IMG/VR virus record: IMGVR_UViG_3300037512_001384
Location: 6,442 to 70,441 of that record
From: a virus
Reading direction: 5' to 3' (one strand)
Length of the DNA stretch: 64,000 nt
Below are positions 2,664 through 47,786 of the stretch, piece by piece. Numbering within the stretch: position 1 is the first letter of the stretch; the number at the start of each line of letters is the position of its first letter. Both the position numbers and the translations under genes were made by a program. The notes under the pieces were generated by a model. That model saw nothing but the letters and a program-made list of their open reading frames with translations, did not search any database and was not told the DNA's origin.

Positions 2664-3068
2664 ATGCAAGCAACTGGTAAGATTATAGCAATACTTGAAC
2701 CGCGTTCTGGCATTGCAAAGGCATCGGGCAATCCTTGGTTTATCCAAGGGTTCGTGCTTCAGACCGAAGAGCAATATCCGAAAAAGATACCATTTGAGGT
2801 ATCCGGTGAGGATAGAGTCAAGAACTTCAATATCCAAAAGGGTGAGACGCTGACCATCAGCTTCGATATTGACGCGAAAGAATGGAATGGAAAATGGATT
2901 CCTTCTATTCGATGCTTCAATATATCTCGTGGTGACGGTCAGCAGCAAGCAGCTCCGGCTCAAACGCAGAATCAGCAACCCGCACAACATGCTGCACCTG
3001 CACCGCAGGCACCGCCACCTGATCCGTTAGAGACCCAGGGAGGTGCAGATGATGATGTCCCCTTCTGA
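2664..3068 (+). CDS. DUF3127-type single-stranded DNA-binding protein with Q/P-rich linker and acidic DDDVPF tip
   Basis: MQATGKIIAILEPRSG..GNPW..QYPKKIPFEV..FDIDAKEWNGKW matches the Bacteroidota DUF3127 OB-fold pattern. The C-terminus ends DDDVPF, like the bacterial SSB tip. Confidence 0.75.
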   Translation: MQATGKIIAILEPRSGIAKASGNPWFIQGFVLQTEEQYPKKIPFEVSGEDRVKNFNIQKGETLTISFDIDAKEWNGKWIPSIRCFNISRGDGQQQAAPAQTQNQQPAQHAAPAPQAPPPDPLETQGGADDDVPF

Positions 3069-3133
3069 TTAGGATATGTCATTCATAGCCCGGTTAGGCT
3101 TGGTTGTCTCTCCGGGCACTAAAAGTGTTTTAC

Positions 3134-3418
3134 ATGAACGCAATAGATTTCACTCAGAAATACTCCTATGAGTTCATCCTTAAGCCTCCTCAAACCCTCG
3201 ATTATGAGGAATACAATGTTGATTGGTTCCTCACCCCTCGCGGTGACATGATGTGCAGGCGCGGCGGTTATGAAATATCGTCAGACATTCTGAACCGCCA
3301 ACACTGGCTGTGGTTTCTTGCAGAAAAACGTTGGTTTGACGCCAACACATTTCTTCCCGCCTATTTTGAGGCTTGTCGCAGAGCTGGGATAGAGAAAATT
3401 GAGATGAGGATAAGGTAA
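3134..3418 (+). CDS. hypothetical protein
   Basis: ORF-track ORF trimmed to the first ATG (MNAIDF). Preceded by hairpin GCCCGG..CCGGGC. Confidence 0.4.
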   Translation: MNAIDFTQKYSYEFILKPPQTLDYEEYNVDWFLTPRGDMMCRRGGYEISSDILNRQHWLWFLAEKRWFDANTFLPAYFEACRRAGIEKIEMRIR

Positions 3419-3424
3419 TTAACA

Positions 3425-4258
3425 ATGAAAGATTCATTTGTTTTTCATAAAGACTGGTACTTAGCCTTAAAAGGGTTAGACGTTCAAGACAAAGTTGAGG
3501 TCTATGAAGCTATAATGAGCAAAATATTTGATGGTGTAGATAAGAAACTTTCGCCTGTTGCACAGATGGCAATGAATTTTATTTCGCCACAAATTGAAAG
3601 GGATGTTGAACGTTATAATTCCATTTGTGAGCAACGCAAACTATTTGGTAGTAAGGGCGGTATAGCAAAAGCTACCAAAAGCTACCAAAAGGTAGCAAAA
3701 GGTAGCAAAAGCAAGCAAAAGGTGGCAAGTGTAGCTGATAATGATAATAATATATCATCTTCTACTAACGTAGAATCTGATAATGATATTATAGATATAG
3801 AAGTAAAAGATAAATCTTTTCCTTCTAAGAAAAAAAATAAATTATTTATACCGCCTACATTAAACGAAGTAGAGGCGTATGTAAAAGAAAAAGGCTATCA
3901 TTTCAGCGCCAAGGCATTCTTTGACTATTACGAAGCGGATGACTGGCATTACGGCAAAGGCAGTAATAGAACAAAGATATCGAACTGGAAGCGCTGTTGT
4001 GCCACATGGGAGGAGCGGCGTACTACAAGTAATAATATACCTCGTGAACCCGCATCGTTGTTTGATAACCATACTCCCGAACCGGAAGACGAACAGACTT
4101 TATTACAGAAAGCATACGAAGAACTGAACGACACCCAGGAGGCTGAGATATACGGAATGGTCCCCTATGAGTTTCACATGCTGAATGAGAACGGCAAGAA
4201 ATATTGGCGCGAAGTTTACAAGGAAAAGATGCTTGATTGGATCAAGAGCAACAGATGA
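3425..4258 (+). CDS. putative replication initiator / replisome organizer
   Basis: The N-terminal domain (FHKDWY..RKLFGSKGG) and the W-rich C-terminal block (FFDYYEADDWHYGKG..ISNWKRCCATWEERR) resemble phage replisome-organizer proteins. The central linker is encoded by iteron-like repeats plus an AT-rich tract. Confidence 0.45.
   Translation: MKDSFVFHKDWYLALKGLDVQDKVEVYEAIMSKIFDGVDKKLSPVAQMAMNFISPQIERDVERYNSICEQRKLFGSKGGIAKATKSYQKVAKGSKSKQKVASVADNDNNISSSTNVESDNDIIDIEVKDKSFPSKKKNKLFIPPTLNEVEAYVKEKGYHFSAKAFFDYYEADDWHYGKGSNRTKISNWKRCCATWEERRTTSNNIPREPASLFDNHTPEPEDEQTLLQKAYEELNDTQEAEIYGMVPYEFHMLNENGKKYWREVYKEKMLDWIKSNR
3661..3730. repeat. seven phased 10-bp units each ending AAAA (iteron-like array inside the organizer gene)
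   Basis: tatagcaaaa gctaccaaaa gctaccaaaa ggtagcaaaa ggtagcaaaa gcaagcaaaa ggtggcaagt. GCTACC and GGTAGC are inverted relative to each other. Confidence 0.85.
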
Positions 4259-6150
4259 GCGACAATATTCTTTATGTAGAGGATTTCAGACACGTCTTAG
4301 GCAGCAGGTCATCAGGTAACATAAAAACCTTCTGTCCTTTCTGCCATGAGAATCGTGGAAACAAGAGGGATAAATCCCTTTCGATAAACTGCGCGACCCT
4401 GGCATATAACTGCCATTATTGCGGTGCGAGCGGTTATCTGAAATCCCGGCATGAGGAAATGATGCGGAGAATAGACAGGGAAACAAGACAGATGTCCAAG
4501 ACTTATCGCAAACCCTCGGTCAAGCCCAACCTTCAACCTAAGCTCAATGCGGACATGGTTGAGTATTTCAAAGGGCGCGGCATCAGCGAGAAGACACTTC
4601 TTGAGGCGAAGGTCACAAAGGAGAATTTCTTTTTCCCGCAAGACAATTGCAAGCGCGGATGTATCGCTTTCAACTACTATGTTGATGACGAGCATATCAA
4701 CACCAAATATCGCACAAGGGACAAGCATTTCGCATTCATTGCCGGTGCCAAGGTAGTCCCCTATAACATAGACAGCATAAGAGAGAGCGCATTCAAGAAG
4801 GGTGAAAAGAAAATCTGCATCATCACTGAAGGTGAAGCGGATACTCTCACTTATATCGAATGCGGCTATAAGCATGTCATATCCATGCCGTCCGGTGCTA
4901 ACACCAATCTGGAATGGATGGATGACTTCACCGAATCCCACTTTGATAAACTTGAACTGATTTATGTATCGACAGACAGTGACAAGAAGGGTGTTGAAGC
5001 CAAGAATGAGATAGTACGAAGGTTTGGAGCTGAAGTATGTAAGATAGTTGAGTATCCGGAAGACTGCAAGGATATAAACGAGGTTCTTGTCAAATATGGA
5101 CCGGAGAAGGTAAAGGAATGCTTCGAGGGTGCTGCGGATATTAGAATCCAAGGTGTCGAGGAACTTGTTGACATAGAGTCAGACCTTGACAACCTGTTTA
5201 CTTCGGGACTTCAAAAGGGAGTAACCCTGGGATTGGAGGATATGGATAAACTTCTGTCCTTCAATACCGGAATGGTGACGGTCGTTACAGGAATCCCTTC
5301 GCACGGCAAAACCCAATGGTTGAATTTCGCTCTGATCAGACTCAATATCCTTCACTCATGGAAGGTGGCGTTCTTCTCTCCTGAGTTCTATCCTGTAGCG
5401 CTGCATATATCCCAAATCATAGAGACGCTTGGAGGTAAAAGGTTCTCATCCCAGAACTATACGCCTCAGACTTACGGCATCCTGAAGGAGTATGTCAACA
5501 AGAATTTCTTTTGGGTGGATCCTGATGACACGGATATAAGCTCAGTCTTGGACAGAGCCAAGTTCCTCATCCGCAAGAGAGGTATCAAGGCGTTTGTGAT
5601 TGACCCTTTCAATTCGCTGACAGACGAGAAGCGAACGATATACAAGCAGGATGAATATATTTCGGACTTCCTGCAGAAGATACGATGGTTCGCCAGGAAG
5701 TATGACGTTGCAATGTTCATCGTCATGCATCCCACCAAACAATACAAGCAGGATAACGGCTTATATCCGGTCTGTGACCTGTACTCATGTAAGGGTGCAT
5801 CTGAGATATACGACAAGGCTGATATCGGCATCACCGTATGGAGAAACGAGCAGGGTAATTACGGTGAGGTGCATGTGACCAAGATGAAGTTCCGTCACAT
5901 GGGACAGAAAGGACATGACACTTTCGTCTATAACTTCAATAACGCCCGGTTCGTTGAGATTCCCACTATGGACGCGAAGCGTGTGGCTCCCGACATGGAT
6001 AAAGTGAAGTGGGATAACAGCAATTATGTAATTGAGAATATCAAGACGCAGCAGAATCAGCAGGAATTGGATTTTGGAGCGGAGCAGCCGGAAACACCAC
6101 ATAATGAAAAACCCTTTGATGCGCCGATAGACGAAGATATCCCGTTCTGA
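4255..6150 (+). CDS. bifunctional primase-helicase (zinc finger + TOPRIM + DnaB/RecA-like helicase, T7 gp4-like)
   Basis: CPFC..CHYC zinc motif, TOPRIM ICIITEGEADTL and DSDKKG, Walker A GIPSHGKT. Start taken at the ATGA overlap with the preceding stop. Ends DEDIPF. Confidence 0.85.
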   Translation: MSDNILYVEDFRHVLGSRSSGNIKTFCPFCHENRGNKRDKSLSINCATLAYNCHYCGASGYLKSRHEEMMRRIDRETRQMSKTYRKPSVKPNLQPKLNADMVEYFKGRGISEKTLLEAKVTKENFFFPQDNCKRGCIAFNYYVDDEHINTKYRTRDKHFAFIAGAKVVPYNIDSIRESAFKKGEKKICIITEGEADTLTYIECGYKHVISMPSGANTNLEWMDDFTESHFDKLELIYVSTDSDKKGVEAKNEIVRRFGAEVCKIVEYPEDCKDINEVLVKYGPEKVKECFEGAADIRIQGVEELVDIESDLDNLFTSGLQKGVTLGLEDMDKLLSFNTGMVTVVTGIPSHGKTQWLNFALIRLNILHSWKVAFFSPEFYPVALHISQIIETLGGKRFSSQNYTPQTYGILKEYVNKNFFWVDPDDTDISSVLDRAKFLIRKRGIKAFVIDPFNSLTDEKRTIYKQDEYISDFLQKIRWFARKYDVAMFIVMHPTKQYKQDNGLYPVCDLYSCKGASEIYDKADIGITVWRNEQGNYGEVHVTKMKFRHMGQKGHDTFVYNFNNARFVEIPTMDAKRVAPDMDKVKWDNSNYVIENIKTQQNQQELDFGAEQPETPHNEKPFDAPIDEDIPF

Positions 6151-6688
6151 TCAAGACATACTTTATAGGCATATTATATTTCTTAGAGCCATGCATTATG
6201 GTATCCTTGCGACCGTCATAACCGGTTGCTATCTCCTGTATGGCTTCATGGTCAAAGAAATACTTCTCCTGTTTTGACATCAGGAATATATATTCATGTG
6301 CCTTCGTACAGCGGTCTTTGATGCTTTCGGGCTGCGGATTCAGCTTATGCCAGATGATGTCATTTCTCAGACGGAATCCGATACGGTCTCTTAGTGCGAA
6401 AGCCGCCATCCAGGGAATACCGATAAGACTTTTTGCATTGTCATAGCTATCTCCGAGGTTCAGCCAGAGCGTTCCTTCCGGTTTAAGAACGCGAAACACT
6501 TCCGTGAATACTTCGGTGAGTCTGTCGATATACTCTTCTGGTGACTTCTCCAGACCTATCTGACCGTCAATACCGTAGTCTCGCAGATTGAAATATGGCG
6601 GTGAGGTGACACAGCAATCAACGCAGTTGTCAGGAAGGCTTTTCATTCCGGTGAGGCAGTCTTCATTGAAAACTTTGTTGATTTCCAT
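6041..6688 (-). CDS. N-terminal half of a beta-class N4/N6 DNA methyltransferase (SPPY motif IV), separated from its 3' half by inversion
   Basis: MEINKVFNEDCL..DCCVTSPPYFNLRDY..LWLNLGDSY..NDIIWHK..HEYIFLMSK. Methyltransferase similarity stops at the repeat (6163-6175). The rest of the ORF is read-through antisense to the primase-helicase gene. Confidence 0.75.
   Translation of the reverse strand: MEINKVFNEDCLTGMKSLPDNCVDCCVTSPPYFNLRDYGIDGQIGLEKSPEEYIDRLTEVFTEVFRVLKPEGTLWLNLGDSYDNAKSLIGIPWMAAFALRDRIGFRLRNDIIWHKLNPQPESIKDRCTKAHEYIFLMSKQEKYFFDHEAIQEIATGYDGRKDTIMHGSKKYNMPIKYVLIRTGYLRLSAHQRVFHYVVFPAAPLQNPIPADSAAS
6163..6175. repeat. left inverted repeat of invertible segment 1 (TTATAGGCATATT)
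   Basis: Perfect reverse complement of 6692-6704. An imperfect extension brings it to about 20 bp. Confidence 0.9.
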
Positions 6689-7141: not shown

Positions 7142-7648
7142 GCAGGTTTAAGAAGTAGAAGTGGTTTTTGGATGGAAGCAACCATCGAGATCACAGAGAC
7201 AACCCCCAAAGGGTTGCCAAAGACAGTGAGAGAACGCTACACAGTTGAGGCAGCGTCATTCATTGACGGTGAGGAGAGAATCCGCAAGGAGCTCAACTAC
7301 TCCAACCGTCCTATCAAGACCGTGAGCGGTATGTTGCGCCCCAAGTACGGTGAGATTTGTTTCTCTGATGACGCAGCAGCTGAGAACTGGTACAAGGTTA
7401 AGGTTGATATGAAGGAGGAGGTAGAGGTAAGAACCCGTAAGGGTGGCACCCGCACCAAGACCAAGACCGTATCGCACTATTATCTTGTCCAGTCTGACTC
7501 CAACGAGAACGCTCGCAAGGCAATCGGTGACGAGATTTACAAGGGTTCAAACGCCGACTATGAGATAGCCGATGTCGTGAAGACCCGTATCCTGGATGTG
7601 CTGGAGAAGGATAAGCATCTGAAGAGTGCTGAGAAAAAGGAAAATTAA
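7139..7648 (+). CDS. DUF4494-like protein
   Basis: FWMEATIEI..YTVEAASFIDGEERI..WYKVKVDM..YYLVQSDS fits the Bacteroidota DUF4494 pattern. The start is supported by the leader motif. Confidence 0.55.
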   Translation: MAGLRSRSGFWMEATIEITETTPKGLPKTVRERYTVEAASFIDGEERIRKELNYSNRPIKTVSGMLRPKYGEICFSDDAAAENWYKVKVDMKEEVEVRTRKGGTRTKTKTVSHYYLVQSDSNENARKAIGDEIYKGSNADYEIADVVKTRILDVLEKDKHLKSAEKKEN

Positions 7649-7669
7649 CCGTACACCATTTTGTTGTTG

Positions 7670-7712
7670 GAAAGCCCTATGCCGTGCCATTGCGGTGTAG
7701 GGCTTTCTTTTT
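7670..7712 (+). terminator. rho-independent terminator
   Basis: GAAAGCCCTA..TAGGGCTTTC stem followed by TTTTT. Confidence 0.8.
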
Positions 7713-7722
7713 GAGAGAAGGG

Positions 7723-8202
7723 ATGAATACGTATGTAATTACTTTATCACAGACTTTCCCTGTGACACATAAACGCGCCGGTGAGCCCACCGACTTCGAG
7801 CATAAGTTCACCGCCGCGACCCACAAGTGGCTTGACCATTGGTGGAAGCGTCATACCATTCGTGCCAATTACGAATTATGGCGTAAGCGCTTTGAAAAGA
7901 TAGATGCCGGTCAAGCCCAGCTGTCTATACGTCAGTGGTCAGGTAAGCCTTACGCTTCCAAACAGGTTCAACTGGCTGTGCTCACCAAAGCTGACGGCAT
8001 CGGAATACAGAAACTGCAGTTCGATGTTGACAGGGATGGTATGCATTCCTTGAACCTGATAGAGATTGACGGCAAATCCGTAAGCAAGGAGCTTCTGGCA
8101 TATAACGATGGGTTGAAAATTGAGGATTGGATGGAATGGTTCCGTCGGTATGACCTCTCCAAACCTCTGGCTGTAATTCATTTCACAAGCATCAGGTATT
8201 AA
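7723..8202 (+). CDS. hypothetical protein
   Basis: ORF trimmed to MNTYVITL, downstream of the terminator. Confidence 0.5.
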   Translation: MNTYVITLSQTFPVTHKRAGEPTDFEHKFTAATHKWLDHWWKRHTIRANYELWRKRFEKIDAGQAQLSIRQWSGKPYASKQVQLAVLTKADGIGIQKLQFDVDRDGMHSLNLIEIDGKSVSKELLAYNDGLKIEDWMEWFRRYDLSKPLAVIHFTSIRY

Positions 8203-9292: not shown

Positions 9293-9363
9293 GGTCGTAT
9301 GGCGTAATGGTAGCGCAACAGACTTTGGTTCTGTGTGTCCCGGTTCGATTCCAGGTACGACTA
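9293..9363 (+). tRNA. tRNA-Gln (anticodon UUG)
   Basis: Manual cloverleaf: acceptor GGTCGTA/TACGACT (G1-U72), anticodon stem ACAGA/TCTGT, loop CTTTGGT, T arm CCCGG-TTCGATT-CCAGG (one C-A mismatch). No encoded CCA. Confidence 0.8.
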
Positions 9364-9374
9364 CAAATTATTTC

Positions 9375-39004: not shown

Positions 39005-39997
39005 TCACGCATCGGCCCAGTAAGTCCAAGTGTGGATCTTGCTCACCCCGTAGCGGTTGAGGTAGGCGTCGAGACGTTTGCGGAACTTCTCCAGCCCGAA
39101 CTTCAGACCGTCAAGGATGAGGGCGCGTTCCTCCTTGCTCGCCTCATGGCCTTCGTTGTTGTACCACGACCTGCCGATAAGGAAATCGAGCTTGTTCTTG
39201 TAACCTGTCTCAGCGATACGCAGTGTCTCACCCTTCTCGATGCTCTCAATGGAGCGAGTGAAGGCGCTTTCGTTCTGCTGGATGAAATACTGACGGAGTT
39301 TACTCTCGTCTTTCATCAGCTCGCAATAGAACTTATAGTCCGGTCCTTCGTCATGGAAGCAGAAGCGGTTGTCTATTGACGGCTTGGTTATCAAGTAGAA
39401 ATGTCCGTCAATCTTCACCGCTCCGACACATCCCTTGCTGTAGTAGTCGCGGTCTGACTTGTCATCTTTGCACTCGGTGTCAAGAAACTCGCTGAGCCAC
39501 GTGATGAACTTCTCGTCCTTCTTGGCAGTCTTCTCGACCTTGGCGGTAATATGTGATGCTCCGCCTCCGATGAACGCCTCCACAGCCTCGCGCTTGTCGT
39601 TATTGAACAGCCAGCCCGCTCCGCAGGAGAGGAACTTGTTGAACTTCCAAGCCCCGAGTTTCTTCAGCTGCTCGCGGTAAGTGAACGTGTCACCCACAAC
39701 CGCGAAGCATTTCTCTGAATATTCTACGATTCTCAGGTCAGGCCCGTCGGTTTTCAGAGCCGCCTTGATGTCGTTGAAATCCTCCTCACCCAGCCAATCC
39801 GAACAGGAGAGGCCGTCAGGGAAATCCTCGGTGTCCTGAATCATAAACTCCGGATCGCTCTCGTTCTTGTGCAGTTCTTTGCACTTCGAGATAAACGCAT
39901 TGTAGTTCTCACAATCCGCGAGAGAAACCCATCCGCCCGCGATGCTGCCGTTGTTGTACTTACCCCAAGTACCGACATAAACTTTTGGATTACACAT
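39005..39997 (-). CDS. ArdA-like antirestriction N-terminal domain fused to a C-terminal domain of unknown function
   Basis: KVYVGTWGKYNNGSIAGGWVSL..PEFMIQDTEDFP parallels the ArdA N-terminus (VYIANLGKYNEGELVGAW..). Cassette-defined start. Confidence 0.6.
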   Translation of the reverse strand: MCNPKVYVGTWGKYNNGSIAGGWVSLADCENYNAFISKCKELHKNESDPEFMIQDTEDFPDGLSCSDWLGEEDFNDIKAALKTDGPDLRIVEYSEKCFAVVGDTFTYREQLKKLGAWKFNKFLSCGAGWLFNNDKREAVEAFIGGGASHITAKVEKTAKKDEKFITWLSEFLDTECKDDKSDRDYYSKGCVGAVKIDGHFYLITKPSIDNRFCFHDEGPDYKFYCELMKDESKLRQYFIQQNESAFTRSIESIEKGETLRIAETGYKNKLDFLIGRSWYNNEGHEASKEERALILDGLKFGLEKFRKRLDAYLNRYGVSKIHTWTYWADA

Positions 39998-42874: not shown

Positions 42875-42896
42875 TGTCGTAGTATTTAAGTATGGT

Positions 42897-43227
42897 TTAT
42901 CGTACTCCGGTAGTCCGTCAGGACAGCCGGAATCATTTTCACGCAGCGGAGTATGATTTATCGTACTTTCCGAACTGTCCGTACATCGTCAGGTTCTTTC
43001 CCGTACTCTTGGCGGTCAGCTCATAACTCCTGTTGCGGATTCTCCTGTAGATTCTCGTCTTCATAATCGTAGTATTTTAGAGTTGGTGATAATCGTACTG
43101 CGTAGGGTTTCCGTACTCTCCGTCAGTTTTCGTACTGCGGATAATTATCGTACTATCCGCAGTTATGGCCGCGAATCGCTTTGTCTGTCATCCGCGTGAC
43201 GTATCCTCAGCCGTTGGTTTACGTACT
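42897..43227 (+). repeat. array of eight CGTACT hexamers (plus one CGTACA), all on the same strand
   Basis: Copies at 42901, 42962, 43002, 43094, 43112, 43131, 43149 and 43222. Sub-families TTATCGTACT (3 copies), TCCGTACTCT (2) and CGTACTGCG (2). Confidence 0.85.
42939..43064 (-). CDS. hypothetical basic protein (41 aa, not in ORF track)
   Basis: MKTRIYRRIRNRSYELTAK..; cassette-defined start. Confidence 0.4.
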   Translation of the reverse strand: MKTRIYRRIRNRSYELTAKSTGKNLTMYGQFGKYDKSYSAA

Positions 43228-43239
43228 GATTCCGCGTTC

Positions 43240-43380
43240 TCAGGACAGACCTTCAAGCAATCCGCAAAGGAGTATGAACAGGACACAGCCGGACATCGTG
43301 ACGATGATCCCGCCTATCGTGTAGTCCTCATCGAGCCAGTGCACTTTCTTGCACAGCAAATCCAAAATCTTCTCTTTCAT
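43240..43380 (-). CDS. small membrane protein (46 aa)
   Basis: Trimmed to MKEKILDLL by the cassette. C-terminal hydrophobic helix. Confidence 0.4.
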   Translation of the reverse strand: MKEKILDLLCKKVHWLDEDYTIGGIIVTMSGCVLFILLCGLLEGLS

Positions 43381-43411
43381 AATCGTAGTATCTATAGAGT
43401 TGTAGTTTCCG

Positions 43412-43768
43412 TCACGCATTTCCCATACGTGACAGAATGACCACGCGGTCCTGTTCCGGCAGTGTCGGGAGGATCGCGAAGAACAGCTTCTTGGCGGATG
43501 TGAAATCCACTCCGTTCTCCGCCAGAAATTCCTTTGACCATCGGTACTGCGCCATATCTTTCTTAAGGGCGCAGAAGTCAAACATAAAATCAAAGACTTT
43601 CATCGATACCTTGCGGGCCTCCGGTGTCTGCATCCATTCGGCCGATTTCAGGTATTCGGGAAAGTCACGTCCGTAAACCTTGAGGTTGCGGACGTCACGA
43701 GGGAGCTGCATCATATAATCCCAGGCACGCTGGCGCTCATACTCCCGTCTTTCCTTGTCTGCGTTCAT
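43412..43768 (-). CDS. hypothetical protein
   Basis: ATGA overlap with the upstream micro-ORF. Confidence 0.5.
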   Translation of the reverse strand: MNADKERREYERQRAWDYMMQLPRDVRNLKVYGRDFPEYLKSAEWMQTPEARKVSMKVFDFMFDFCALKKDMAQYRWSKEFLAENGVDFTSAKKLFFAILPTLPEQDRVVILSRMGNA

Positions 43769-43863
43769 AGTTCAAGAGAATCTTCTGCGCACAGACATTC
43801 GATCATCTCCTCCGCTCCCAGTCTTTCAAGCAGCTTGGAGGATAACCTGATAAATTCTTTCAT
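43765..43863 (-). CDS. hypothetical protein (32 aa, not in ORF track)
   Basis: MKEFIRLSSKLLERLGAEEMIECLCAEDSLEL. Cassette-defined start and ATGA overlap downstream. Confidence 0.35.
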   Translation of the reverse strand: MKEFIRLSSKLLERLGAEEMIECLCAEDSLEL

Positions 43864-44463
43864 AGTTGCGCGTATTTAAGGTTAAACAATATTCGTAAGC
43901 GGACCGGCAATCTTTCAGCCGTTCCGCCCTGTCCTGTGTCTTTCATCTCTCAGGCGTTTTCCAATAGATTCTAAGTTTAACCATAACTCTGAATCCCACA
44001 GCTCCGGCCTACCGGAGATTCCAGCGGAATTATTCTCAGGCGGAAAAGGGAAATAAATTCCGGTCCGCGAGGAAAGCCCAGGGATTCGCGTAACGATACG
44101 CAAATCCGCATAATCCGCTGATTAGGGATGATGTTCAACGCTGCCGTATAATCCGCGCTCCGATTACTCACTGTTTCGGCTTTCATCTTTCACTACTTGC
44201 CTATATCACTTTCAAACGGAGTGCGCCCTGATCCTGCACGCAGCGCAAAAGCACCGGTACAGGACCGCACGGGAACAGCGCCCGCTATCCGCCAGCTCTT
44301 TGCAGAACAGCCGGAAATATTCGCGTCCAATATGTCAATGTACGTTTTATTAACTTGCACCCTTCACGGAATCCAACCGCGCCCAGATAAGCAGCTCACC
44401 TGGGTTGCAAAAAGGGTATGATCCAAGCGCCCACCTGATAGGCAAATCCTTTCAGATAGGCAC

Positions 44464-44500
44464 AAAAAAGATAGGCGGCGGAAAGTATCCGCCACCTATC
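44464..44500 (-). terminator. rho-independent terminator (minus strand)
   Basis: Minus strand: GATAGGTGGCGG..CCGCCGCCTATC followed by TTTTTT. Confidence 0.75.
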
Positions 44501-44515
44501 AAACAGGGTTAAAAT

Positions 44516-45100
44516 TTAATCAACTTTGCAAACTCTTGTAAAACCAAATTTTGCCAACAGTTCAGGAGTTAAAAGACTTGCGTCTATTCCAAGACTTGCG
44601 GCCAGACTTGCGGACGCTCTTTGCAATTGCTTTTCATTTGCCTGCTTGCGTGCAGTCCGTGCAACTTCATCCCTGAATATATCGTAACTATTAAAACAAG
44701 TACGGAGGCCAGCGGCCGAAATTGTAGTTTTACGGTATGGAGTTAAACCGCTTTCCGTATTTCCTATTGTGTTTGTATCCGCTTCACTTTGAAAAGTGAT
44801 TGTAAAGTTGTTTGTTGCTTTCCTCACTTTTGCAAACACCCTCAAAAACAGATATTTTTCTGTTGCCATAAAAGGAGCGGAACGGAAAGAATCCGCAAAA
44901 CAAGCGGATAATTTATTAAGGTTTTCGGCCTCAATACTTGCGTTTTCGTTGTCAATACTTGCAAGTAGTTTGCTAATTGTGGTTTTACTTGCGTTTGCTT
45001 TTCTCAATTCCTTAACTGAAATACTTGTTACCAGTGTTTCAAGTTCAACGGTTGAAATACCTGAATAAAGGTAATCAACAAGATTTTTGTTTACTTGCAT
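44516..45100 (-). CDS. hypothetical protein (first gene of the leftward block)
   Basis: Cassette-defined start. Has its own terminator. Confidence 0.55.
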   Translation of the reverse strand: MQVNKNLVDYLYSGISTVELETLVTSISVKELRKANASKTTISKLLASIDNENASIEAENLNKLSACFADSFRSAPFMATEKYLFLRVFAKVRKATNNFTITFQSEADTNTIGNTESGLTPYRKTTISAAGLRTCFNSYDIFRDEVARTARKQANEKQLQRASASLAASLGIDASLLTPELLAKFGFTRVCKVD

Positions 45101-45763
45101 AGTTGTAATATTTAAGAGTTAATAAAATAGTGTCAAAGTGCGCATATCGGAAACACCTTTCCGACACTATAAAATTACAAAAATAATCCGATATAATGCC
45201 AATATTTGTATATTTAACTTATGTTTAATTGATTGATATATAGTAAGTTATAAAGAAAGATTATACAATATTGTAGTATATATACAGGTTATTATTGTAT
45301 ATATACATAGATAGTTAATTATATAATAACTTAAATATATAGATATTTAACGGAAAAATACTTACAAATTGATCCCAGAGTTTCGGCAATAGGTGCAAAC
45401 CGATGAACACACAACCAACACGGCAATAAAGCGGAAAAGTTGCAAGGAGCGACAAACCCCACAACGGACCGACAACGCGACCGCGAGCGGATACAATACA
45501 ATTATAATGTATTTGTTTTGCAGGAAAAACCGCGCGAATACCCCACCCAGAGAAGGCTACCCCCGACCCCCTAAATACGTTTGTATTGCGTGGGGGTCAG
45601 CCCCCGCCGAGATTTTCAATTTTTCATTTTTCGTTTTTACTTTTCGTATGCGGAACATGTTTCTGTGTATCTCAATCGGTGTTTCTGGTCTATATATATC
45701 AGTCCTGATGCCGTGTATCCTTGTCTGCGCGTTGATTATGGTCTGATACATGGGTATCTATGG

Positions 45764-45982: not shown

Positions 45983-46025
45983 TTCGATACCCAGGTATTG
46001 GTTTGTTTAGTTATTGTTTTTATAT

Positions 46026-47483
46026 ATGGGTAAAGGTACACAAAACAACAATTTCACGCTTATTGAAGACCTTAGTAAGCTGATTTACAACTCGCTGAAC
46101 AAAGCTCCGTTGAAGGAGTCCTATAAGCTGTATTCATCGGGTGACAGGGTATATGTCTATCAGGAGGTCATCCTTGATGCCTGCAGCAAGTGTTTCCGGT
46201 CTTACATGGGTGATGTATATTACTTCGACGGCAGGATATGGTGTCCTCTGGCTGATATTGTGCTTGAGACTGCGTTGAGCAAGGCGTTGGTGCAGGGAGG
46301 AGCGCGTAAGTCGGATATCGTGAATGCCAGGAGCAAGATTCTGTATTCGGCACGTGGCGGTGCGTCGATGTCACCGTTGGAGTTGCGTGCGTCGGTCATC
46401 GGATTCCGTAACGGCGTATGGGATTTCACTGACATAGACAACCCGGTCTATCACTCTTTTGCCGAGCGTATGCCTGTGGTGCGGATACTCCCTTACGACT
46501 ATGACCCTGATGCGGGCTGTCCGAAGTGGCAGGCGTTCCTGCAGTCCATCTTGCCGAAGGGTGAGATAATGAAGCTCCAGAAGTACCTCGGTCTCGGCTG
46601 TGCTGACCGTAAGAGCATGACGCATAAGATTGAAGAGACGCTGTGGCTCATCGGGTCGGGTGCCAACGGCAAGTCCACCATCTTCGACGTGGTACGCGGG
46701 GTGTACGGTGCGGATAACATCAGCTATGTGGGTCTCGATACGCTGCTTAGCGGCTCGTCGGACGTGCGTGCGCGGTTCATCGGGAGCATCGTGGGTAAGA
46801 TCTTCAACTACTGCTCGGAGATACAGGCGGATGACATATCACGTTACGCCGATACCTTCAAGTCCCTCTGTTCGGGTGAGCCGCAGACCGTGAGAAGGTT
46901 GGGTCAGAACCCCGAGACCACCTTCGACATACCGTTCCTTGTGTTCAACATGAACCAGAAGCCCACGAACCGGCGTATGGACCAGGCTCTCGTGCGCCGT
47001 CTGCTCTTCATACCTTTCAAGACCACCGTCTCTGCCGCCGACATGAACCGTGAGCTCTCGTCGGAGCTGCTGAAGGAGCTGCCGGGTATCCGCAACTGGA
47101 TGATAGAGGGCTATAAGATGCTCATACGTGACGGCTATCAGTTCAACACCACCAAAGCCGCCGATGATGAGATGACCGACTACATGCTGGAGAACGGTCA
47201 GACGGTGCAGGTGTTCCTACAGAAGAAGGGCTACTCATGTAACAGGCGCACGGGACACTGGGAGGACCGTATCCAGTGGGTTCCTGCGTCCGCTCTCTAT
47301 GAGGACTATGTGTCGTTCTGCGAGAAGTGGCTGCAGGATCCTGTCAAGCAGCGTGCTTTCGGCAGTGAGATGGCACGTCTCGGATGGCATGAGACGGGAG
47401 GGAACCGCAAACGTACCGGCACGGGTTACGCCTACGGCATCTTCTGCGAGAAGGATATCGATTACGCAAAAAATAACATCTGA
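46026..47483 (+). CDS. P4-alpha / poxvirus D5-type primase C-terminal domain with SF3 helicase
   Basis: YDPDAGCPKWQAFLQSIL..LQKYLG..WLIGSGANGKSTIFDV (Walker A). ORF trimmed to MGKGTQ. Confidence 0.8.
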   Translation: MGKGTQNNNFTLIEDLSKLIYNSLNKAPLKESYKLYSSGDRVYVYQEVILDACSKCFRSYMGDVYYFDGRIWCPLADIVLETALSKALVQGGARKSDIVNARSKILYSARGGASMSPLELRASVIGFRNGVWDFTDIDNPVYHSFAERMPVVRILPYDYDPDAGCPKWQAFLQSILPKGEIMKLQKYLGLGCADRKSMTHKIEETLWLIGSGANGKSTIFDVVRGVYGADNISYVGLDTLLSGSSDVRARFIGSIVGKIFNYCSEIQADDISRYADTFKSLCSGEPQTVRRLGQNPETTFDIPFLVFNMNQKPTNRRMDQALVRRLLFIPFKTTVSAADMNRELSSELLKELPGIRNWMIEGYKMLIRDGYQFNTTKAADDEMTDYMLENGQTVQVFLQKKGYSCNRRTGHWEDRIQWVPASALYEDYVSFCEKWLQDPVKQRAFGSEMARLGWHETGGNRKRTGTGYAYGIFCEKDIDYAKNNI

Positions 47484-47768: not shown

Positions 47769-47786
47769 CCAATACTATTATCTATG
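47757..47786 (+). promoter_or_regulatory. plus-strand copy of the leader motif (ATTGTTTAACCAATACTATTATCTATG)
   Basis: Same box and ATG spacing as the cassette family. Confidence 0.45.

Follow-up and report, generated by a model that had tools for sequence, protein, structure and literature searches.

What does a phage make from several hundred base pairs that hold no recognizable gene and lie inside an operon of small early genes? The question is raised by a 64,000-nucleotide stretch of viral DNA (positions 6,442 to 70,441 of the IMG/VR record IMGVR_UViG_3300037512_001384; hereafter the window, whose numbering is used throughout), in which a preliminary description had marked positions 43896-44463 as a candidate structured RNA. 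Rfam searches, covariation among relatives and an inspection of the reading frames support that proposal, and two features that had been overlooked emerged: a module shaped like a transfer RNA (tRNA) and a boxA motif common to host ribosomal RNA (rRNA) operons. The element is predicted to be an RNA of ~530 nucleotides (nt) encoded on the minus strand as part of the leftward early operon. The reading favored here, for which belief and doubt are about evenly balanced, is that of a large structured phage RNA that copies the host rRNA spacer (tRNA and boxA) to load Nus factors.

A non-coding element in the early operon

The element is set in a leftward early operon of small genes, on the minus strand of a phage genome segment, between a gene of 194 amino acids (aa) upstream (44516-45100, minus strand) and a 32-aa open reading frame (ORF) downstream, the ATG of which is at 43863. 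The minus-strand terminator that had been placed at 44464-44500 is real: a terminator scan found a 13-bp stem (44500..44470) with 8 G-C pairs followed by T6 (TTTTTTG), and the hairpin is kept across relatives, with compensatory changes. At the other end the extent first given had to be trimmed. The portion ~43931-44463 stands, and the hairpin at 43899-43929 belongs to a repeated gene cassette.

That the stretch holds no plausible ORF was borne out. The longest ORFs between the terminator and the hairpin before ATG 43863 have 55-74 aa and overlap one another, and the same gap was left empty by independent gene callers on public contigs. Because TAA, TAG and TGA are all present in each of the six frames, no frame is rescued by a recoded stop codon, and an alternative genetic code concealing an ORF was excluded. 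It can hardly be credited that the stretch is an unrecognized or decayed protein-coding sequence: its G+C content equals that of coding DNA and gene callers put ORFs there in two relatives, but every frame carries stops, no frame is conserved, and close relatives differ by 1-nt and large non-triplet indels. Moreover, the called ORFs share no protein similarity (the best segment, 39 aa at E = 0.014, joins different frames), Pfam gave nothing significant for the short ORFs (ATG5_UblB on the 74-aa ORF reached 17.3 bits, cut-off 20.4), and substitutions preserve base pairs, not codons. The stretch had also been called richer in G+C than the neighboring spacers, which is true with respect to 45100-45400 (0.20-0.30) and misses that its own content (0.49-0.54) is at the level of coding DNA in this phage. 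In the syntenic gaps of more distant relatives G+C is 0.25-0.42.

A conserved and covarying structure

Folded as minus-strand RNA, the region has a minimum free energy (MFE) of -215.1 kcal/mol (z = -3.98), which none of 100 shuffles equaled; the plus-strand fold has z = -2.53. About 10 related phage contigs have homologous elements at the corresponding place, past the terminator of the first early gene. By similarity, these were assigned to group A (window, L014/L016, L019-L022, L015, L023, L025, L026 and L024) and group B (L027-L030 and L032). On the minus strand the order of parts is terminator, hairpin P1, tRNA-like three-way junction, a single-stranded 18-mer, a variable middle domain, a 3' domain and a conserved tail (Table 1).

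RNAalifold, run on seven group-A sequences, predicted 81 pairs, 33 of them with compensatory changes. Two domains were modeled separately, the 5' domain (window 44326-44465, alignment A5) and the 3' domain (43992-44130, alignment A8, model R2), and covariation was strong in both; the pair counts rest on 6-7 distinct, related sequences. MAFFT alignments of hairpin Ma and of the 3' domain with L015 included were structurally out of register and were left out of the counts. In the 5' domain 99.3% of cells are paired, compared with 41-50% when the structure is slid by 1-3 columns, and 11 of 24 pairs are compensatory; none of 500 column shuffles reached the observed value on four of five measures, and 3 of 500 did so on the remaining one, further pair types. 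Within P1, 6 of 11 pairs are altered on both sides, and four are G-U pairs, possible on the minus-sense strand only. Conserved G-U pairs such as these (four of the 11-12 in P1) place the structure on the minus-sense strand and argue for RNA, not duplex DNA.

For the 3' domain, 85.9% of cells are paired in the model alignment, and slid structures reach 34-53%; compensatory changes occur in 23 of 39 pairs, and shuffles were as high in 0 of 500 cases on four of five measures and in 38 of 500 on further pair types. Pairing is 88-100% in helices Ha, Hb and Hg. The lower scores of He and Hf come from L025 and L026, where the register of these two helices is shifted. Model R2 found L015, which had been left out of model building, at E = 9e-9, and folding L024, the most divergent member, by MFE (z = -2.9) gave the same P1, P2a, Hb, Hc, He/Hf and Hg. 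Two of the perfect stems noticed in the preliminary description reappear as covarying helices, CTCCGG-n4-CCGGAG as Hg and GCGTA-n4-TACGC inside Hc/Hd; the 13-nt direct repeat that it listed is also present (44106-44118 and 44144-44156).

The middle domain holds GC-rich hairpins besides Ma, which stands at the same place in the window, L015 and L023 and is built from different sequences. It also contains the AGUA...GAA module, the sole island common to the window and L024 that blast can detect. The tail is nearly invariant in group A, and no covariation-supported structure was found in it, the RNAalifold proposals resting on invariant columns. Taken together, these data show a structure that is conserved and covarying on the minus-sense strand, and non-coding.

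Table 1. Features of the element and its borders, listed 5' to 3' along the minus strand
Feature	Position	Strand	Remarks
Intrinsic terminator of 194-aa early gene	44464..44500	-	hairpin 44500..44470 plus U-run
Element proper	~43931-44463	-	~530 nt, after reassignment of the 43899-43929 hairpin to the cassette
P1 hairpin, GUGCC...GGUGC	44427..44463	-	11-12 bp; 98.5% of cells paired
tRNA-like three-way junction	44359..44417	-	helices 2-4 100% paired, compensatory changes in each
P2a hairpin	44382-44404	-	variable length
T-arm	44365-44381	-	5-bp stem, 7-nt loop UUGGAUU; directly before P2 3' strand
boxA-like single-stranded 18-mer GUACAUUGACAUAUUGGA	44326..44343	-	conserved in all members
Variable middle domain	44142..44325	-	structure resolved in part
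Hairpin Ma with GCAA tetraloop	44288-44315	-	middle domain
Conserved AGUA-[small hairpin]-GAA module	44179-44197	-	resembles loop-E/sarcin-ricin motif
3' domain, two nested three-way junctions	43992..44130	-	covariance model R2
Helix Ha	44124-44129 with 43993-43999	-	3' domain
Helix Hb	44114-44121 with 44021-44029	-	3' domain
Helices Hc/Hd	44082-44107	-	3' domain
Conserved unpaired CUUUCCUC	44069-44076	-	3' domain
Helix He	44062-44068 with 44037-44044	-	encloses Hf (44049-44061)
Helix Hg	44002-44017	-	3' domain
Conserved tail ...AGAGUUAUGGUUAAACUUAGAAUCUAUUGGAAAACGCCUGAGAGAUGAAAGACACAGGAC	43931..43991	-	nearly invariant in group A
Gene cassette of 32-aa ORF (ATG 43863)	43864..43929	-	GC-rich hairpin 43899-43929 plus AUUGUUUAACCUUAAAUACGCGCAACU; neighbor, outside element

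The tRNA-like module

The junction that follows P1 has a tRNA-like architecture: an acceptor-like stem, a 5-bp T-stem with a 7-nt T-loop, a D-loop-like partner and a predicted stacking of the arms. The acceptor-like stem P2 has 5-6 bp (ACCCUU/AAGGGU in the window, GCCGUU/AACGGY in other members), P2a provides an "anticodon" loop of 3-7 nt on a stem of 6-10 bp, and a 7-nt linker, UUUGCAA, stands where the D-arm would be. The T-arm reads CGCGG-UUGGAUU-CCGUG, with a T-loop of the UUCGAxx kind. Its third position is C in other members (UUCGAUC, UCCGAUU and similar), which have GG in the linker, and G in the window, L015 and L023, which have GC there; this switch mirrors the G19-C56 elbow pair of tRNA and may reproduce that contact. 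ARAGORN and the Rfam tRNA model RF00005 made no tRNA call on the module, and ARAGORN found no transfer-messenger RNA (tmRNA) either. The module is therefore tRNA-like by architecture, as judged from the predicted fold, and is no decodable tRNA.

The family is wider than blast had suggested, because covariance model R1 finds the module at the syntenic position in L002 (IMG/VR; E = 4e-11), L027 (E = 0.002) and L030 (E = 0.01). In these three the terminator hairpin takes the position of P1, directly before the tRNA-like module; their link to the family was made by R1 only. Genuine phage tRNAs with the motif downstream were also scored by R1, and a loose pattern of T-arm plus motif returned mostly real tRNAs from IMG/VR. 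In L027 the T-arm matches that of a Pedobacter spacer tRNA-Ala without difference over 17 nt.

A possible counterpart was noticed in an unrelated phage contig, L040 (IMGVR_UViG_3300045988_129255), where an uncalled gap of ~535 nt (7483-8018) is headed by a tRNA-like module and an exact GTTCTTTGACATATTGG. That module is not called by ARAGORN either, and a second T-arm-like hairpin lies near the end of the gap; matches of R1 similar to that of L040 were obtained in L078, L102, L063 and L080.

A boxA motif of the Bacteroidota rRNA spacer

Every member carries the motif GU(A/U)C(A/U)UUGAC(A/U)UAYUGG ~15 nt past the junction. It occurs at a single site in the 64-kb window, ~120 nt into the element, where ~400 nt of untranslated RNA and then the remainder of the operon follow it. 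The 18-mer has no consistent pairing or pseudoknot partner in any member, which fits a single-stranded, protein-binding motif. The TTGACA within it was considered as a promoter and rejected, as no conserved -10 follows in any member.

The consensus GTTCTTTGACATAYTGG was sought in 185,579 genomes, and at least 120 matches were obtained; among the matches listed, about 70 of 80 are in Bacteroidota, including Pedobacter, Mucilaginibacter, Chitinophaga, Bacteroidales and others, and many lie on rRNA contigs of 5-6 kb. In 10 of 15 loci examined, tRNA-Ile and tRNA-Ala are found 30-230 nt upstream of the motif. The order in L157 is 16S (510-2031), tRNA-Ile, tRNA-Ala (2401-2477), motif (2545-2561) and 23S (2714-5595), and the interval between tRNA-Ala and 23S is the established site of the spacer boxA in rrn operons. 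The consensus resembles the boxA of the Escherichia coli rrn operons, UGCUCUUUAACAA. This comparison shows the family's consensus 17-mer to be identical, letter for letter, to the rRNA-spacer motif of Bacteroidota, and it is regarded as a putative boxA. Its placement is that of a boxA: on the sense strand, unpaired, and in the 5' part of a long transcription unit.

A host of this phylum is consistent with the remainder of the window. The nearest annotated relatives by the D5-type primase/helicase (46014-47483, plus strand, ~1.5 kb away from the element) are phages of Bacteroides, Phocaeicola and Parabacteroides, at ~31% identity, and genes in the window lack Shine-Dalgarno sequences; both traits fit a Bacteroidota host. 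As to the form that the motif would take in the actual host, GUACAUUGACAU may be the boxA variant of the true host genus.

Motifs of boxA type, TTTGACATA, were also seen in or heading phage tRNA arrays of 11-19 tRNAs (L054 4501-4622, L093 2413-2524 and L075 2193-2336, all in IMG/VR), a distribution that suggests that phages may use boxA generally for long untranslated transcription units. No description of boxA in Bacteroidota phages was found in the literature, and to our knowledge this would be the first boxA-type signal described in them.

A proposed imitation of the pre-rRNA spacer

The 5' part of the element seems to imitate the 16S-23S spacer of the host, with a tRNA-shaped module followed ~15 nt on by boxA. 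Tentatively, the sequence of events would be as follows. Once boxA is transcribed, host NusB-S10 would bind it and, together with NusA and NusG, build an anti-termination and chaperone complex of the rRNA type. Such a complex could keep Rho from terminating transcription in the next ~400 nt, which are untranslated, and in the early genes beyond, and could aid the co-transcriptional formation of the long-range helices of the 3' domain. The tRNA-like module might serve as a handle for RNase P and RNase Z, which would cut the RNA off the upstream mRNA. In E. coli, NusB-S10-bound boxA nucleates a complex with NusA, NusG and SuhB that withstands Rho and keeps the nascent RNA attached to the polymerase, which helps long-range folding (PMC5725501, PMC10250234, PMC6614797), and in several phyla, Bacteroidetes included, boxA protects untranslated CRISPR arrays (PMC7665894). 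It is because the same device serves E. coli rRNA and CRISPR arrays that a boxA/Nus role is proposed for the phage RNA.

The likeness to the rRNA spacer extends to the order of parts: tRNA shape, short linker, boxA and long untranslated structured RNA. In contrast with the spacer, the tRNA-like part of the phage lacks a D-arm and CCA and its "anticodon" hairpin is variable, and the ~400 nt of RNA downstream are unrelated to rRNA and follow an intrinsic terminator within a phage mRNA operon. In lambdoid nut sites and in CRISPR leaders, likewise, mobile elements or non-coding loci recruit Nus factors with a boxA of host type close to where a transcription unit begins (PMC2800207, PMC7665894); unlike these, the phage motif is of Bacteroidota type and embedded in 530 nt of conserved structure, and neither an N-like protein nor a boxB was identified for it. 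As in the mascRNA of MALAT1, the tRNA-like domain of tmRNA and viral tRNA-like structures, an acceptor/T-arm stack with a T-loop is predicted here, the linker replaces the D-arm while keeping a predicted elbow-type contact, and the module is found at the boundary of a longer RNA; unlike them, the phage element has no tag ORF and no aminoacylation signal.

Several observations weigh against this interpretation. The weakest point is how the polymerase gets into the element: directly upstream there is a strong intrinsic terminator, between the two no promoter was recognized, and complexes of Nus factors on boxA are much more effective against Rho than against strong intrinsic terminators. Of the 17 positions of the Bacteroidota spacer consensus GUUCUUUGACAUAYUGG, two are changed in the window's copy of the motif, each within the U-rich core (GUACAUUG vs GUUCUUUG); that consensus is of Bacteroidota at large and may not be that of the actual host, and binding of NusB-S10 is a prediction. 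The acceptor-like stem has 5-6 bp only, with no D-arm and no CCA, and cleavage by RNase P and RNase Z is a conjecture; the coupled change of linker and T-loop is probably a single evolutionary event. Regarding the structure, the excess over shuffles may partly reflect the shared ancestry of 6-7 related sequences, alignment A10 was fitted to the model, and R2 detects no 3' domain outside group A, for which reason the 3' "cargo" is considered lineage-specific.

Relatives and pattern of conservation

The relatives were reached by several routes. Exact-protein look-ups gave near-identical contigs and one variant, L015, and a motif-pair scan of JGI metagenomes gave three further close copies. Contigs L022-L033 were reached via homologs of the 194-aa protein (45-98% identity), and each has an uncalled gap of 450-820 bp after gene 1, with G+C of 0.43-0.51. 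IMG/VR contigs found via the primase (43-86% identity) have the same gene order and an uncalled gap of 400-700 bp after the first leftward gene; neither blast nor nhmmer found similarity between these gaps and that of the window. An nhmmer profile run against the IMG/VR relatives gave nothing significant, and the downstream 118-aa protein, used as a search anchor, returned its own cluster only.

Compared with L020 or L021, the window shows 99.5-99.7% identity in the element, 87-90% in gene 1 and ~98-99% in the downstream genes. The high identity of the element in this comparison is attributed mainly to a recombination boundary at the terminator, rather than to selection alone. L015 has flanks that are ~94-99% identical and a central ~350 nt that is heavily diverged, with conserved islands and with hairpins rebuilt from different sequence. 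In L023 (3814-3884 vs window 44142-44328) ~130 nt of the middle domain are absent, including the AGUA...GAA module, and in L025 and L026 an insertion before helix Ha is a second copy of that module (L025 3999-4043).

Public gene calls place antisense ORFs on two group-B elements, at 3459-4025 of L027 (188 aa) and 3547-4017 of L030 (156 aa), with an overlap onto the end of gene 1. The two have no similarity as proteins and were dismissed as spurious, an indication that gene callers can put spurious ORFs on elements of this kind.

Known RNA families and alternative explanations

No known family accounts for the element. With the 4227 covariance models of Rfam 15 at gathering thresholds, the only match in the whole window was a tRNA-Gln elsewhere, and a lax-filter search of 43700-44700 (E <= 10) gave only chance-level matches, on the terminator hairpin, with no ROOL, GOLLD, HEARO, raiA or intron among them. 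OLE and every other Rfam 15 family failed to match the element, and a search of the elements of the relatives matched nothing. Annotated phages contain no DNA similar to the element, a 21-mer of it has no match in IMG/VR, and the group-A pattern has none in the 185,579 genomes; because of these negative results the element is not regarded as a fragment of the host or of a known prophage element. A large survey of structured RNAs in IMG/VR reported motifs of 29-151 nt only (PMC10690425). The RNA family and its combination of parts appear undescribed, while the parts themselves are of known kinds (boxA leaders, tRNA-like modules, ornate phage RNAs).

The main alternative, rather unlikely in our judgment, is that the whole element is a cis-acting anti-termination leader, equivalent to nut, put or EAR, that enables read-through of the hairpins between the 20-odd early genes and needs no free RNA. 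The boxA motif would be expected of such a leader, the element lies near the head of a long operon with a GC-rich hairpin before every gene, and it is conserved together with that operon and not elsewhere. Hairpins flank the boxA, and an N-like protein is not recognizable; the neighboring 194-aa protein, which is encoded by the first early gene and always adjoins the element, was considered as an N-like partner; its AlphaFold model is confident (pLDDT, the predicted local distance difference test, 83.8; helical with a small three-stranded sheet), and no fold or family match was found in PDB, BFVD, Pfam, PHROGs or NCBIfam, a result that speaks neither for nor against such a partner. Difficult to reconcile with a leader are its position after the first gene instead of before it, the complete absence of a middle domain from L023, and complete differences in the 3' domain among lineages in which boxA and the tRNA-like module are retained; besides, the RNA-only anti-terminators known to us have 70-120 nt, compared with 530 nt here. 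Less probable still is a trans-acting ornate RNA of the ROOL/GOLLD kind, a distant member or an analog, perhaps multimeric, in which boxA and the tRNA-like module would be incidental, left over from a tRNA or rRNA neighborhood. In its favor are the size (~530 nt; ROOL RNAs average 581 nt), the presence of several multistem junctions and the occurrence in a phage; ROOL and GOLLD often adjoin tRNAs (PMC5737381), and RNAs of this type form homo-oligomers according to cryo-electron microscopy (PMC12286853). The resemblance, namely hundreds of nucleotides, multistem junctions, occurrence in phages or prophages and association with tRNA or tRNA-like parts (PMC5737381, PMC12286853), is offset by Bacteroidota-type hosts, the presence of boxA, and a tRNA-like 5' module that is within the element instead of a neighboring tRNA gene. 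In addition, the ROOL model (RF03087) gave no match at the gathering threshold in the window, at E <= 10 in the 1-kb slice 43700-44700 or at E <= 1 in seven relatives, and GOLLD was equally absent. The tRNA-like module and boxA are not incidental, in our view, because no other part of the element is conserved as widely.

A cis-regulatory 5' untranslated region (riboswitch, thermosensor or translational operator) of the 32-aa and 118-aa genes is a poor candidate. The element is directly upstream of both genes, and its conserved GGUUAAAC is able to pair with GUUUAACC of the cassette before the ATG. This "anti-cassette" pairing was examined and rejected: its duplex energy is at the level of shuffled cassettes (z about -0.5), and group B has no equivalent. 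The downstream gene, moreover, has the same self-contained cassette as a dozen others, known riboswitches are much smaller than the element, and none of those in Rfam matched. More remote yet is a DNA-level element, in which the hairpins would form a replication origin, a primase-loading site or a packaging site. Proximity to the D5-type primase/helicase gene and to the AT-rich divergent region would suit such a role, but the G-U pairs that are kept would be C-A mismatches on the other strand, folding is strand-asymmetric, a motif common to rRNA spacers acts on RNA, and the AT-rich 45100-45400 is a better origin candidate.

Neighboring features of the window

The cassette that precedes the 32-aa ORF (hairpin, AUUGUUUAACyyUAAAU..CAACU and AUG) is also found before at least 12 other early genes. 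Minus-strand gene starts that bear it are at 43863, 42874, 42149, 41785, 41361, 39997, 37925, 33854, 32706, 31665, 30977 and 30435, and a plus-strand one at 47784. Directly 5' of the ATG it consists of a GC-rich hairpin and then (t)ATTGTTTAACyyTAAAt..TACAACT, without a Shine-Dalgarno sequence; the relatives have a different version, CATAATTGAGTTTTA.

The region 45100-45400 lies between the divergent early operons and adjoins the primase gene, and is a candidate origin or promoter region. A second stretch without gene calls, of ~540 bp (42875-43411), contains a conserved ORF of ~47 aa for a small hydrophobic protein (MKEKILDLLCKKVHWLDEDYTIGG...), and within that stretch a 40-nt island (43127-43166) is 97.5% identical to L002, with dissimilar flanks. 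Farther along the same early operon, an ArdA-type anti-restriction gene (39005-39997, minus strand) is indicated by a Pfam tag on a public contig. Elsewhere in the window, a tRNA-Gln(UUG) gene is present at 9293-9364 (plus strand).

Implications for phage biology

Few large, intricately folded RNAs are known from bacteria and phages, and a function has been established for almost none of them. For this element, the boxA, which provides the first mechanistic handle, and the tRNA-like module open the way to concrete experiments. It is conceivable, with considerable reservation, that the elements represent an undescribed class of ornate RNAs of Bacteroidota phages that are made, folded and matured by impersonating the pre-rRNA spacer and that have a function of their own in early infection, for example as a decoy or sponge for host factors or defenses. 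More generally, the occurrence of the motif suggests that phages of Bacteroidota may use the rRNA anti-termination system of their hosts for long untranslated transcripts. If the imitation of the spacer is real, the machinery by which the host transcribes and assembles its rRNA would be hijacked for a phage non-coding RNA.

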